From Cenarchaeum symbiosum A (GTDB lineage Archaea; Thermoproteota; Nitrososphaeria; Nitrososphaerales; Nitrosopumilaceae): DNA of 24,000 nucleotides. Position 1 is the first letter of the stretch. Each line of letters begins with the position of its first letter. Below, piece by piece: positions 1-12,427 of this stretch. The translations under genes were made by a program, and so were the position numbers. The notes beneath the pieces were generated by a model. The model was not told the DNA's origin, made no database searches, and worked only from the letters and a program-made list of their open reading frames with translations. The stretch is from positions 470,154 to 494,153 of the forward strand of contig DP000238.1 in NCBI GenBank assembly GCA_000200715.1, read 5' to 3'.

Positions 1-32
1 AAGTATTTGCTTTATATACATAATGCATAATG

Positions 33-40
33 CTTATAAT
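33..40 (+). promoter_or_regulatory. TATA-like box (CTTATAAT) for hairpin RNA copy A
   Basis: The block AATGCTTATAATCCAT (29-44) is conserved with 310-325 upstream of copy B. The box centre lies about 26 nt upstream of base 62, the first paired base of the hairpin. The same spacing is seen at other promoters in this window. Confidence 0.45.
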
Positions 41-61
41 CCATCTAGGTGTGGGTATGCT

Positions 62-123
62 GCCTGCACCGAATCCCTTGGACCAGCTGAGCTGGGGAGT
101 CAAGGGTTGATGTGAATGCAGGC
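62..123 (+). ncRNA. Candidate structured small RNA, copy A (62-nt three-tier hairpin, class unknown)
   Basis: The lower stem is 62-68/117-123 (GCCTGCA/TGCAGGC), the middle stem 75-80/101-106 (CCCTTG/CAAGGG), and the apical stem 83-87/91-95 (CCAGC-TGA-GCTGG). An asymmetric internal loop (CCGAAT versus TTGATGTGAA) is rich in GA steps. A paralog 281 nt downstream has substitutions that preserve the pairing. Confidence 0.4.
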
Positions 124-313
124 ACTATGCTAAATCAAGATAGAAGGTGCACGAGCAGGTTGTTTGCCATACACGATGATCCATTCCGCGCTTGTTCTTT
201 ACTGTTTCTAGGTGCGGTCCGGCAGATGGCTGAATCTAGGCAATGTAATTGAATAATTATCTGTCATCAAAACATGCGAGTTAGCTATGCAGCCTATTGC
301 ACATCGGGGAATG

Positions 314-321
314 CTTATTAA
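314..321 (+). promoter_or_regulatory. TATA-like box (CTTATTAA) for hairpin RNA copy B
   Basis: The block AATGCTTATTAACCAT (310-325) is conserved with copy A. It has the identical 33-nt offset from the start of the block to the first base of the hairpin (343), while the 17-nt spacer in between has diverged. Confidence 0.45.
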
Positions 322-342
322 CCATTCAAACCCACGCATTTT

Positions 343-404
343 GTCTGCACCGAATCCTCTGGACCAGCTGAGCTGGGGAATCAGGGGTTGATGTGAATGC
401 GGGC
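343..404 (+). ncRNA. Candidate structured small RNA, copy B (paralog of 62-123)
   Basis: This copy has the same 62-nt length and architecture as copy A. Of the 6 differences, 5 fall in stems and keep pairing: C-G to U.G, U-A to U.G, C-G to U.G, and one full U-A to C-G covariation. The sixth is in a loop. The U.G pairs exist only if the + strand is transcribed. Confidence 0.4.
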
Positions 405-506
405 AGCATCTTATGTACCACTGCTGTGCCGCCTCGGTACCCCTGCTATACCGGGGGCGCCGCCTGCGCCAAATGCTAAATGAGGGTGCCGCCCCGCGGT
501 GTACAG

Positions 507-890
507 ATGCAGACGCTTGGCGCGTACGTCCGCGACATACTGGTCCAGATAAAAGAATCCCACGGCGCAATCTCCTCCCTTGAGGACAAGCCGGGCGACC
601 TAGACGTGCTAAAGAGGGAATGGGGGAGGATAGACGGCCTTGTGGGCACGCTTCCCCGGCGCATGGACGGGCGGGGCGCACTGCCAGACATCTACAAGAG
701 GATCCGCAAAAAGTGCGCCTACTATTCAGAGAACTATTACTTTTACCGGGAGATGGAGATAATGTCGGACCTGTACGGGGCAGACCCTGGAAGACTCCGC
801 CACATGCGCCTCAAGATATTAGAGTCGCTTGCCGACAACAGGTTCATGGAGACGGTCTCCGAGGGAATAGACGAGCTGGAGGGGGCGTAG
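507..890 (+). CDS. Hypothetical protein (127 aa from ATG 507; the track ORF starts at 480)
   Basis: The frame is open, and codon usage resembles the neighbouring genes (ATA for Ile, GC-rich third positions). A TATA-like CTAAATGA at 476-483 is centred about 27 nt upstream of ATG 507, and the ATG at 480 lies inside that box. I recognise no family. Confidence 0.5.
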   Translation: MQTLGAYVRDILVQIKESHGAISSLEDKPGDLDVLKREWGRIDGLVGTLPRRMDGRGALPDIYKRIRKKCAYYSENYYFYREMEIMSDLYGADPGRLRHMRLKILESLADNRFMETVSEGIDELEGA

Positions 891-7405: not shown

Positions 7406-8452
7406 TCAGCCGGCGGCGCTGATTCTCTTGTTTGCGGCCCTGCAGTACCCTGCGTTGAGCTCTATCCCCATGAATGACCTGCCAAGGGATCTTGCCGCGA
7501 CCCCGGTGGTCCCGCTCCCCATGTAGGGATCAAGCACGACAGCACCTTTTGGCGTCAGCAGCCGTATAAACTCGGCAATTATCCCCACCGGGTATATCGC
7601 GGGGTGCGCATTCCACCTTATGCTCTCCACCTGGTGGTGTATCACGTCCCTCTTTATCGGGTTGCCCCTCATGCGTATTATCGTAAAGCCGTTGTCCCTG
7701 AGCTGTATCTGCCTGCCGCCTGCCTGGCCGCCAAACGCAGGCGAGTGTATTCCCCGTATCTTCATCCTAAACCCCGCTATCGCCCCGCTCTTTGTCTCTT
7801 CTATGGCCTCTTGCAGGGCCTTTTGCGCGCGCCTCTTTTGTACAGGCTCAAGCTCCGAGGACTCTATTAGCTTTTTGTAGCCCTCTCCCACCCTTGTATT
7901 CTCTGGGGGTTTTTTCACACCTGTCTCGGGCCTCTGAAAGTCGTCTATGTTGTAACAGTACGAATCCGACTTGGCAAAGTGAAAAAACGGCTCTGTGCCG
8001 CTGACCAGCCGCCGCTTGAACTGCCGCGGCGTCGGGTTTGTCTTGACCCATGTGGTGTTGTTTACCAGCCTGACTGCGCCGCTGCCCGTAGCCCTGATTG
8101 CAAACCGGTACGGGACTAGCATGAGGCTGCCTTGAGAGTACTTGTCGCCCATGTTGAATACTATGCTGCCGGTCTCTTTGGTCACCCGGACGCACTGCTC
8201 AAAGACCTGCATTATAGAATCAATGTACGCCTCTACGTGCCCTTCATTGCCCGTCCTGCCGCCCCCATAGTCCCTCTGCTGATAGTATGGAGGGGATGTT
8301 ATCACAAGGTCGACAGATCCGCTTGGCACGTCTTTTAGCATTTTCGCGCTGTCGCCGCACCGCACTGTATTGAGAAACGGGGCCAGAGAGCCCCGGACGG
8401 ACTGCCTGTTGGCCGCTGGCACCATGCCCGTTGGGCGAGCTTTGTTATTCAA
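7406..8452 (-). CDS. DNA methyltransferase, N4/N6 (beta-class) family with an SPPY motif IV; likely N4-cytosine specific
   Basis: Motif IV (DLVITSPPYYQQRDY) precedes the AdoMet motif I (VLDPYMGSGTTGVAA), which is the beta-class order. SPPY is the form usual in m4C enzymes. The track ORF starts at TTG 8452; an in-frame ATG at 8425 (MVPAAN...) is an alternative start. Confidence 0.85.
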   Translation of the reverse strand: MNNKARPTGMVPAANRQSVRGSLAPFLNTVRCGDSAKMLKDVPSGSVDLVITSPPYYQQRDYGGGRTGNEGHVEAYIDSIMQVFEQCVRVTKETGSIVFNMGDKYSQGSLMLVPYRFAIRATGSGAVRLVNNTTWVKTNPTPRQFKRRLVSGTEPFFHFAKSDSYCYNIDDFQRPETGVKKPPENTRVGEGYKKLIESSELEPVQKRRAQKALQEAIEETKSGAIAGFRMKIRGIHSPAFGGQAGGRQIQLRDNGFTIIRMRGNPIKRDVIHHQVESIRWNAHPAIYPVGIIAEFIRLLTPKGAVVLDPYMGSGTTGVAARSLGRSFMGIELNAGYCRAANKRISAAG

Positions 8453-10300: not shown

Positions 10301-11245
10301 TCAGAGGTCGCCTGACTTTATCCGCTCGAGGCACTTTATCACGTCCTGCTTTGCTATGGGGACGGGGTTGGGATCGAGGTGCCCCTTGTCGGTCATTACC
10401 ACGTCTGCCGCCTCTGATATGTCCGCCTTGAGATCGAGCCTCTCAAAGCCGAGCTTTTCCATGCATTCCTTGAACCGGCCGTAGAACTTTGAGTTGTTGT
10501 GCTTGTGGGCTACAGTAGTGCATGACGAGAGAGAATATCCGTGGGGGACGCCCTCGTTGGAGAATACGTATGATAGCGCGTGGCCAAGCGTGGTCGAGCA
10601 GTTCCCAAAGCCCATCCCGGAGAGCATCGAGCCGTACGGGTATTCCTTGGTGTTGCCGCTCATTATCGCATCGTACAGTATGTTAAACGCCCTCTCGCAT
10701 AGGCCCCTGGTATAGTCGTTTCCGAGCTTGCTGTCGTACCCTTCGGTGGCCTGGGCGCACGCGTCGCATACGGAGTTGTTTACTATCTGCTGGGGAGTCC
10801 CGTCGAGAAAGTACGAATCCACCACCGCCATGTCTGCGAGGAACCTGTCCTCGCGGAGCAGCTTCTTTTTTCCGTCAAACTTTAGCACGCAGTAGGTGGT
10901 CATCTCGGCGCCCGTGCCAAAGGTTGTCGGTATGAGGATCTTTTCGACGCCAAAGTCGCGCGCCGAATACTTTACAACGTCAAGCGAGCTTCCGCCGCCG
11001 AGGCCTATCAGGACCGACGGCTTTTTGTCCTTGAACTCGGCTATGAGGGCCTGCGAGTCCTCGACCGACGGCTCGGGGTTTACCTTGTCGTACAACATGT
11101 AGTCCTTTATCTCCATTTTTGCCAGCCACTTTTCAGAGAGGGCGGGCGCTGCGGTGGTCACGACTAGCGCATTGGCTGGGTACTCTGTCTCTGCGAGCGC
11201 GTTTTCGCCAAAGTTGATCATCTTTGGGATTCGTACAGTGTGCAT
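10301..11245 (-). CDS. Iron-containing alcohol dehydrogenase family protein (short form, 314 aa)
   Basis: The product has the GLGGGSSLDVVKY dinucleotide-binding loop, IPTTFGTGAEMT, DACAQATEGY and LGHALSY...VPHG metal-ligand regions characteristic of the Fe-ADH family. Confidence 0.8.
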   Translation of the reverse strand: MHTVRIPKMINFGENALAETEYPANALVVTTAAPALSEKWLAKMEIKDYMLYDKVNPEPSVEDSQALIAEFKDKKPSVLIGLGGGSSLDVVKYSARDFGVEKILIPTTFGTGAEMTTYCVLKFDGKKKLLREDRFLADMAVVDSYFLDGTPQQIVNNSVCDACAQATEGYDSKLGNDYTRGLCERAFNILYDAIMSGNTKEYPYGSMLSGMGFGNCSTTLGHALSYVFSNEGVPHGYSLSSCTTVAHKHNNSKFYGRFKECMEKLGFERLDLKADISEAADVVMTDKGHLDPNPVPIAKQDVIKCLERIKSGDL

Positions 11246-11367: not shown

Positions 11368-11550
11368 CTACCTTCTCCTTCTTCTCTGTCCCGGCTTGTT
11401 CTGGCCGGGGAAGCGGTTTAGGACCAGACGTTTTCTATAGTTGCTCCTGTTCTGGACGCTTGCGTTGGTGCCGGTCTTTTTTCTTCCCTCGATCTTGGGC
11501 GTCTGGCTTCTGACCTTTCCGGCCTTTGTAAGCGATCCGTGAGTTGCCAT
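11368..11550 (-). CDS. rps30e: 30S ribosomal protein S30e (eS30)
   Basis: The 60-aa basic protein begins MATHGSLTKAGKVRSQTPKIEGRKK, matching the conserved HGSLxKAGKVRxQTPK core of eS30. Confidence 0.85.
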   Translation of the reverse strand: MATHGSLTKAGKVRSQTPKIEGRKKTGTNASVQNRSNYRKRLVLNRFPGQNKPGQRRRRR

Positions 11551-11599: not shown

Positions 11600-11652
11600 G
11601 TGCCTGGCTGGGCAAGGCCCGGCTTCAGGCACGGATTGCACCCTTGTTTTTT
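11600..11652 (+). other. Strong 14-bp hairpin followed by a T6 tract (terminator-like element or roughly 50-nt small RNA)
   Basis: GTGCCTG-GCTGGGC-AAG-GCCCGGC-TT-CAGGCAC (11600-11632) folds as 7+7 bp with a 2-nt bulge. A T6 tract follows at 11647-11652. No + strand gene lies upstream of it. Confidence 0.3.
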
Positions 11653-11684
11653 CCCACGCCTGAACTTACATGACATACGTGAAG

Positions 11685-11693
11685 TTTTTTATA
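11685..11693 (+). promoter_or_regulatory. TATA box (TTTTTTATA) upstream of the 47-codon ORF
   Basis: The box is centred about 27 nt upstream of ATG 11716. Confidence 0.35.
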
Positions 11694-11715
11694 CCGAAAG
11701 AATACACACCTATTG

Positions 11716-11859
11716 ATGGATGACAGCACCAACCCTCGAGATGAGGCGCCAGGAAACACACCCGGATCAGACAAGGATGTCAAAAAGGGTAAAGAACAAG
11801 TCGTATATTTCGACGGCACAGAGGAATTTATGACTGTGGTAATTCACGTTCCACCCTAG
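11716..11859 (+). CDS. Small hypothetical ORF (47 aa), absent from the ORF track
   Basis: Hand translation gives MDDSTNPRDEAPGNTPGSDKDVKKGKEQVVYFDGTEEFMTVVIHVPP followed by a stop. It has an ATG with a canonically spaced TATA box and lies in the low-GC islet. I recognise no homology. Confidence 0.25.
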   Translation: MDDSTNPRDEAPGNTPGSDKDVKKGKEQVVYFDGTEEFMTVVIHVPP

Positions 11860-11924
11860 TTTGCTTGCAGCACCGTGAATATTTGCAGGCTAGTGACGTC
11901 CAAAAGACACAGTCTGCATGATTT

Positions 11925-12365
11925 TTATGTATTCGGCAGGTATAGGACTCTCGACGACCTTAAATCGGACAGATAGATCCGATCTCCTTTGGGATCAAAG
12001 AGACTAGTCCGTGATATCCTGTTCAGATTTAAGTGAAAGACTATTCCCACGTTGTTGTCCAAGGTGTATTCCGACGCTTCGTACGACATTGTCTCATACC
12101 GGCATACCCTCTTTTCAATATTTTCCATTAATTGTGACGGGGTATGAGGTGTTTGATCTTTTTCTCCTTGTTTGGAAGTGTGACATAGTACAACTCTCAT
12201 ATTGTGGATATCGCAGTGATACGCCACTGCCCCCAAACTGTCGGTTTCCACCCAGACGGACCTCAGCGTATTGCGTGTCTTTAACTTGGTACCATCTTCC
12301 AATTCATATACATTCCACCTCTCCTTAACCACTTCAAAGTCGATGTATCTCCTTTCTTCAGTCAT
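11925..12365 (-). CDS. Hypothetical protein (146 aa) in the low-GC islet
   Basis: This is an ATG-initiated ORF with a TATA box at the right spacing. Individual 60-nt lines inside it count about 38-42% GC, against about 60-68% in the flanking genes. I recognise no family. Confidence 0.55.
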   Translation of the reverse strand: MTEERRYIDFEVVKERWNVYELEDGTKLKTRNTLRSVWVETDSLGAVAYHCDIHNMRVVLCHTSKQGEKDQTPHTPSQLMENIEKRVCRYETMSYEASEYTLDNNVGIVFHLNLNRISRTSLFDPKGDRIYLSDLRSSRVLYLPNT

Positions 12366-12385
12366 AGCCGTTCAACCTATGCTTA

Positions 12386-12397
12386 AAATATAAAAAC
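12386..12397 (-). promoter_or_regulatory. TATA box (TTTTTATATTTT on the minus strand) for the 146-aa ORF; its T-run may also terminate the upstream radical SAM gene
   Basis: The box is centred about 26 nt upstream of ATG 12365. It is preceded, in the minus sense, by a small CGGGC-AGG-GCCCG hairpin (12407-12419) just past the radical SAM stop. Confidence 0.4.
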
Positions 12398-12427
12398 CCT
12401 TAGAAACGGGCAGGGCCCGCTGACGCC

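Follow-up and report, generated by a model that had tools for sequence, protein, structure and literature searches.

A hairpin element, possibly a MITE-like insertion, where transcription from two near-identical promoters of Cenarchaeum symbiosum A is predicted to begin

We have analysed a stretch of 24,000 nucleotides from the genome of Cenarchaeum symbiosum A (contig DP000238.1, positions 470,154 to 494,153, referred to below as the window), in which a hairpin element of 63-64 nt is present twice in a promoter region, each time where transcription from one of two near-identical promoters is predicted to begin. Our best explanation, which we hold tentatively and with slightly less than even confidence, is that the element is a small MITE-like insertion that is probably transcribed. 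It would be a non-coding insertion of MITE type, 63-64 bp long, with terminal inverted repeats of 7-8 bp and an internally palindromic body, that entered the intergenic region on two separate occasions and each time duplicated a target of 6-7 bp by a staggered cut and fill-in. Both insertion points would lie inside a promoter-like sequence, ATGCT/WWAT (the stroke marks the junction), 16 nt after a near-identical BRE/TATA box, and an RNA of about 63 nt, folded as a three-stem hairpin, would then be transcribed from the first bases of the element.

The evidence consists of the repeat itself, its fold, the direct repeats that flank each copy, the geometry of the promoters and a piece of extra DNA that is missing in relatives, all of which can be seen directly; what we infer is that the element is mobile and transcribed, along with any role for its RNA. 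On this reading there is nothing unusual about the type of element, and the one unexplained point is that two separate insertions have an identical promoter context. The coordinates are in Table 1.

Table 1. Positions in the window of the two units, their flanking repeats and ORF127
Feature	Position	Strand	Remarks
BRE/TATA-like box, unit A (AATGCTTATAATCCAT)	29..44	+	14/16 matches to the unit B box; putative promoter
Left direct repeat, copy A (GTATGC and T61, the latter of repeat or element)	55..61		6/7 match to 125-131
Hairpin element, copy A	61..124	+	Three stems; terminal inverted repeat TGCCTGCA / TGCAGGCA
Right direct repeat, copy A (CTATGCT)	125..131		Overlaps the promoter-like 9-mer ATGCTAAAT at 127-135
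BRE/TATA-like box, unit B (AATGCTTATTAACCAT)	310..325	+	Counterpart of the unit A box
Left direct repeat, copy B (GCATTT and T342)	336..342		6/7 match to 406-412
Hairpin element, copy B	342..405	+	Fold of copy A, with three G-U pairs and one C-G replacing U-A
Right direct repeat, copy B (GCATCTT)	406..412		6/7 match to 336-342
ORF127's own promoter (AATGCTAAATGAGGGTG)	472..488	+	Kept in orthologous loci L001 and L002 at equal distance to the ATG
ORF127, conserved hypothetical protein of Nitrosopumilaceae	507..890	+	93 homologues; no Pfam domain

The two units and their flanking repeats

The two copies of the element, each taken as 64 nt, are 91% identical, and the two BRE/TATA-like boxes, each of 16 nt, are 88% identical, with an offset of 281 nt for the elements and for the boxes alike. 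An earlier reading of this DNA from its letters alone, which we will call the sequence-only reading, had described two paralogous units of box and hairpin at this distance, and the repeats are confirmed. The AATGCTTATWAWCCAT box stands 16 nt upstream of the element in both units, and the spacers, with no indel between them, agree at 4 of 16 positions. Identity between the units is at chance level upstream of the box (8/28) and downstream of the element (5/16 and 16/60), and homology is limited to box and element. The six differences between the copies of the element are all transitions.

The element has inverted-repeat ends and no coding conservation. The terminal inverted repeat of copy A is of 7-8 bp, with 6 of 8 retained as DNA in copy B, and the body contains a perfect palindrome of 13 bp, CCAGCTGAGCTGG, and nested inverted repeats. 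There are no further occurrences of the element ends in the window. A small-protein reading was rejected, as the overlapping ORFs are in different frames in the two copies and most of the changes would alter the protein.

The direct repeats that flank each copy are a new finding, absent from the sequence-only reading. Left and right repeats agree at 6 of 7 positions within each copy and at just 3-4 of 7 between copies, and the remaining 10 bases of the spacer agree at one position. Shuffling of the flanks gave such repeats in both copies, in any nearby geometry, in none of 20,000 trials. With the element and one repeat removed the sites read as promoter-like sequence, TATGCT/AAAT at site A and CATCTT/ATGT at site B. 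Copy-specific direct repeats together with a terminal inverted repeat are, in sequence terms, the signature of insertion with target-site duplication. Since the repeats are more alike within a copy than between copies, they point to two separate insertion events; one insertion followed by duplication would give a likeness within copies no higher than that between copies, and such a history is therefore rejected. An extended stem built from the flanks was also considered, in which both copies retain just 3 of the 6 candidate pairs, and direct repetition is the stronger signal.

The earlier proposal that the units arose by segmental duplication, with a decayed ORF after copy A, is not supported, on two grounds: the regions downstream of the two copies have no significant similarity (p = 0.38), and each copy has its own flanking direct repeat, indicating two insertions. 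A decayed paralogue of ORF127 after copy A was likewise looked for, with no significant similarity found.

An alternative, in line with the sequence-only reading, is that the units are two paralogous, independently transcribed sRNA genes, derived from an old local duplication after which promoter and RNA stayed under selection and the rest diverged. The conserved GA-rich loop would in that case bind a protein or a target RNA. Retention of box and element around a spacer of the same length but little identity is the classic pattern for promoter plus gene, and gene duplication accounts for the box being at a fixed distance. However it leaves the copy-specific flanking repeats unexplained, and for this and other reasons given below we regard it as a possible but rather doubtful origin. 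The insertion model explains the flanking repeats and the restricted homology, and it is the fixed box distance that needs an extra assumption. Equal distance from box to element in both copies is unexpected for independent insertions, and would need either site-specific targeting or an older duplicated pair of promoters that offered one preferred target twice.

Ty3 inserts at RNA polymerase III start sites and Tn7 inserts at attTn7. By analogy the element would resemble both in that the distance between its insertion point, at or beside a transcription start, and a recognised sequence is fixed, but here there are only two sites and any integrase or transposase would be hypothetical. One could go further and see the element as a mobile hairpin-RNA cassette whose target is the transcription start of one type of BRE/TATA promoter, guided by the pre-initiation complex or by melted promoter DNA, with each new copy expressed on arrival; it would then be the archaeal equivalent of Ty3 with its integration at RNA polymerase III start sites. 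We think this very unlikely.

The element can be compared with MITEs (miniature inverted-repeat transposable elements), among them the MITE-like elements resembling small RNA genes that are described in Pyrobaculum calidifontis (Lui et al. 2018, PMC6009581). It shares with them a small size, the lack of coding capacity, terminal inverted repeats and direct repeats at its flanks that differ from copy to copy, and also an intergenic promoter site and a hairpin fold when transcribed. It differs in that two copies are known, in a genome with no reported IS-like transposon, and in that both are at one distance from one box, which is not a property of ordinary MITEs; nor is it related in sequence to any element described so far. 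The finding of zero IS-like transposons in C. symbiosum A (Krupovic et al. 2019, PMC6563490) means that a partner transposase would be either lost or not known.

Two further similarities within the region can be recorded. The reverse complement of spacer A (45-60) matches spacer B (326-341) at 10 of 16 positions in the same register, against 4 of 16 in direct orientation, with a core of ACCCAC against GTGGGT, and this could be chance over all registers or a small inversion. At 461-474, directly 5' of the ORF127 promoter, CGCCTGCGCCAAAT shares 11 of 14 positions with TGCCTGCACCGAAT, the 5' end of the element, a stringency at which about 3 matches are expected by chance in the window.

Promoter geometry and the ORF127 locus

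In the window ATGCT followed by an A/T-rich run is found 34-35 nt before the ATG of ORF127, of uvrB and of the gene at 10301-11245, and ATGCT is also found 32 nt before the element. As the distance from the box is like that for genes of the window, transcription is predicted to start at the first bases of the element, at 62-65 and 343-346. This consensus geometry agrees with the earlier claim that the element begins at a TATA-directed start site. The box is thus a putative promoter, and the element is probably transcribed; it has no T-rich terminator. The shared promoter form, ATGCT or ATGAT with an A/T-rich run, is seen at 30, 311, 473, 7368 (-) and about 11275 (-), and its position 34-35 nt before the ATG of three genes implies leaderless mRNAs.

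A second conserved box had also been reported as following each copy. The 9-mer ATGCTAAAT is real, at 127-135 and 473-481, but it is 3 nt after copy A and 68 nt after copy B, and does not have a common position relative to the element. The further claim that after copy B it is placed as the promoter of the 127-aa ORF fits the finding that ORF127 has its own promoter, 34 nt before the ATG and conserved in orthologues.

The window begins inside the promoter of a leftward-transcribed gene, and in relatives a PALP-domain gene is found there, divergent from the ORF127 homologue. In relatives the gap between the ORF127 homologue and the adjoining PALP gene is about 100 nt and contains no element, and in loci L001 and L002 just 30-50 nt separate the promoters of PALP and ORF127. 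In C. symbiosum this interval is longer by about 430 nt, and both units are inside the extra DNA.

Copy B reads in the direction of ORF127, whose ATG is 102 nt downstream, and no terminator-like site intervenes, as would suit a cis-acting leader: copy B would be the 5' end of a longer ORF127 transcript from the box at 310-325, its hairpin would affect stability or translation, and copy A would be a relic. However ORF127 has its own conserved promoter and can do without copy B as a leader, the short intervals of relatives could not accommodate one, and copy A is equally well preserved with no gene downstream. It is quite unlikely that this is the role of the element.

The uvrC product (983-2578, -) is 100% identical to a Cenarchaeum symbiosum A protein and the next best match is 68%, from which the lineage can be seen to be isolated in databases. 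The uvrC neighbourhoods of the two closest genomes have other genes and an intron-bearing tRNA. In the closest complete relative (L099) a 121-nt tRNA gene, presumably intron-bearing, lies at 8307-8427, two genes downstream of uvrC, with a 200-aa ORF on one side and the EF-2 gene on the other. The place after uvrC is taken in C. symbiosum by ORF127 and the two elements.

With regard to annotation, ORF127 has its 93 homologues in Nitrosopumilaceae and the protein collection has no identical entry, while an antisense 157-aa ORF at 208-681 (-) is deposited as hypothetical protein CENSYa_0541. A search with translations of the element, which cover just 18% of CENSYa_0541, found no relatives of that protein, and it seems that the public annotation called the wrong strand at 208-681 / 507-890. 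Elsewhere in the window a 1.2-kb stretch with few long ORFs includes a 60-aa ORF (MATHGSLTKAGKVRSQTPKIEGRKKTG...) at 11368-11550 (-), which we take to resemble ribosomal protein S30e. The segment at 11650-12400 has a lower GC content (0.50-0.52 per kb), and within it is a 146-aa ORF at 11925-12365 (-) behind a strong A/T-rich box at 12379-12396; this segment may be acquired DNA.

Fold of the element and comparison with known RNAs

As RNA both copies give an identical three-stem hairpin, with energies of -25.6 (A) and -21.6 (B) kcal/mol that have modest z-scores against shuffles (-2.2 and -1.3). In copy A the lower stem is formed by 61/62-68 with 117-123/124, followed by a lower internal loop of CCGAAU opposite UUGAUGUGAA (6 and 10 nt), a middle stem of 75-80 with 101-106, an upper internal loop of GA opposite GGAGU (2 and 5 nt) and an apical hairpin, CCAGC-UGA-GCUGG. 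All 19 pairs are standard in both copies: five of the six differences are in stems, where they make three G-U changes and one double change from U-A to C-G, and the sixth is in a loop. Read from the minus strand, copy B loses the fold, with C.A mismatches at three pairs, and as single-stranded DNA it folds poorly on either strand.

It had been claimed that the differences keep pairing and that the plus strand is the functional sense. The first holds, with modest statistics, and the second is favoured, since the G-U changes and the placing of the box both point to that strand. In simulations random substitutions left all pairs intact in 6% of cases when two thirds were transitions and in 15% when all were, and the shuffle control of pairing has no discriminating power with two sequences. 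The pairing-preserving changes are a hint that the RNA hairpin is important, and selection at the RNA level as judged from two copies, with p about 0.06, is only suggestive. The element has diverged about as far (6/64) as the flanking repeats (2/14), so that rates alone show no selection on it; nor does its identity being above that of the surroundings speak for selection, as there is no homology between the surroundings. Support for constraint at the RNA level then comes from the pairing-preserving pattern and from survival of the fold only as plus-strand RNA, and is suggestive.

These data bear on two of the alternatives. For sRNA genes of duplicate origin one can cite six transitions with no broken pair, loops (16 nt) and apical hairpin that are identical in both copies, and a copy B fold that survives as plus-strand RNA and not as DNA or on the minus strand. 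Against them are the weak pairing statistics (p = 0.06-0.15), the modest z-scores, the lack of a T-rich terminator and the lack of a homologue in GTDB representatives, JGI metagenomes, IMG/VR and the loci of relatives. An unclassified structured RNA behind a promoter is nevertheless plausible. The other alternative is that the element is a palindrome acting at the DNA level with no RNA role, either an operator that binds a protein or an inert, untranscribed relic of a mobile element. The 13-bp palindrome with its nested inverted repeats, the location in a divergent promoter region and an element divergence not below that of the flanking repeats all speak for this. However the asymmetric loops are unlike what a dimeric DNA-binding site needs, the DNA symmetry of copy B is gone at three pairs at which RNA pairing is kept, and there is a promoter-like box at the right distance. 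We consider a DNA-level role unlikely.

Searches for relatives of the element gave the following. Rfam 15 has no match at gathering score over the whole window, and at E values up to 10, for the window and for each copy alone, just microRNA and lncRNA noise; no family matches, and the unclassified status given to the element in the sequence-only reading stands. ARAGORN found no tRNA on either strand of the window, including with relaxed pseudogene settings. Pattern scans required exact loop sequences, for which reason copies diverged by 10% or more would mostly be missed. A loops-fixed pattern gave one match in GTDB representative genomes, in Parcubacteria, with a fold unlike that of the element; 17 pattern matches in JGI metagenomes included none (0/17) with a fold like it; and in IMG/VR one pattern gave 70 chance matches and two stricter patterns gave none. 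A covariance model built from the two copies, and run on the window and nine loci of relatives, recovered just those two. It also gave a weak match at 12266-12302 of L099 that looks like chance. When 5.8 billion proteins were searched with the translated element, so as to catch copies lying under spurious ORFs, the sole match was the overlapping CENSYa_0541, which is weak evidence on further copies. The count is two copies in the 24 kb of the window, and with just these two found among the window, the loci of relatives, GTDB, JGI and IMG/VR, the word family used earlier is not justified.

Of the known RNA classes, box C/D sRNA and the kink-turn were both suggested by UGAUG facing CCGA, with tandem G.A/A.G pairs possible in two registers. 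A box C/D sRNA would have a C box (RUGAUGA) close to its 5' end, a D box (CUGA) close to its 3' end, and D'/C' boxes in between with guides of 12 nt. In the element the order is the reverse, with the D-like CCGA 5' and the C-like UGAUGU 3'; guide regions and another pair of boxes are lacking, neither RUGAUGA upstream nor CUGA downstream is present, and the class was rejected. The window has a UGAUGA C-box-like match to SNORD37 at 244-274 (-), with E = 3 and no D box, which we attribute to chance. The complement of the 3' loop is not found elsewhere in the window.

In the case of the kink-turn, or L7Ae platform, all registers of both internal loops were gone through by hand. In none does a 3-nt bulge lead into tandem G.A pairs and from these straight into a helix; either there is no bulge next to the G.A pairs, or the strand that ought to lack a bulge has 5-7 bases too many. 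When CCGA is paired with either GA of UUGAUGUGAA, 5-7 extra bases are always left on the straight strand. The upper loop, GA opposite GGAGU (A) or GGAAU (B), has no NNNGA strand, and the essential G is replaced in copy B. The earlier suggestion of a kink-turn or L7Ae-binding site is thus not sustained. The statement that the element is not a canonical C/D sRNA, an H/ACA sRNA or a tRNA is in agreement with the ARAGORN result and with the hand checks of the boxes.

The nearest comparison is perhaps with single-hairpin archaeal box H/ACA guide RNAs, which the element resembles in size, in having a lower stem, large internal loop and upper stem, and in its predicted independent transcription. An atypical guide for pseudouridylation would hold Cbf5 by lower stem, pocket and upper stem and so position a target uridine, and target sites in rRNA or tRNA, with complementarity in two parts around a uridine, would resemble 5'-UUCACAUCAA-UN-AUUCGG-3'; the window itself contains neither rRNA nor tRNA. 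The range for the lower stem that closes the large internal loop is 7-9 bp (PMC4652768), and the element has 7-8 bp closing its loop of 6 and 10 nt, followed by an upper stem of 6 bp and then GA on the 5' strand. Atypical H/ACA RNAs are also known in related archaea, but these forms still have a kink-turn (PMC11077068), and in the element the upper loop has GGAGU/GGAAU instead of NNNGA, giving no kink-turn or K-loop. An ANA box is expected 14-16 nt from the pocket-closing pair (PMC7991803, PMC4652768), but there is none here: the stem is followed by ACU (A) or AGC (B), at 17-18 nt, which is also the wrong ruler distance. The 3' side of the pocket is long, 10 nt against the usual 5-6 nt (PMC4652768), and there is no Rfam match. 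Of the explanations discussed this is the least probable, and we give it next to no weight.

Significance

As there are two copies, either of the two readings, insertion or sRNA genes, is a lead rather than a result. If the sRNA reading is true, then an uncultivated sponge symbiont has a lineage-specific structured RNA of unclassified kind. If the insertion reading is true, a genome reported to be free of IS still has traces of a small mobile element, which has landed twice at one position with respect to a promoter; it would offer a lead on target choice by mobile DNA in archaea, and also on how new small RNA genes gain their promoters. The shared promoter form should in addition be useful for re-annotating start codons in C. 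symbiosum A.
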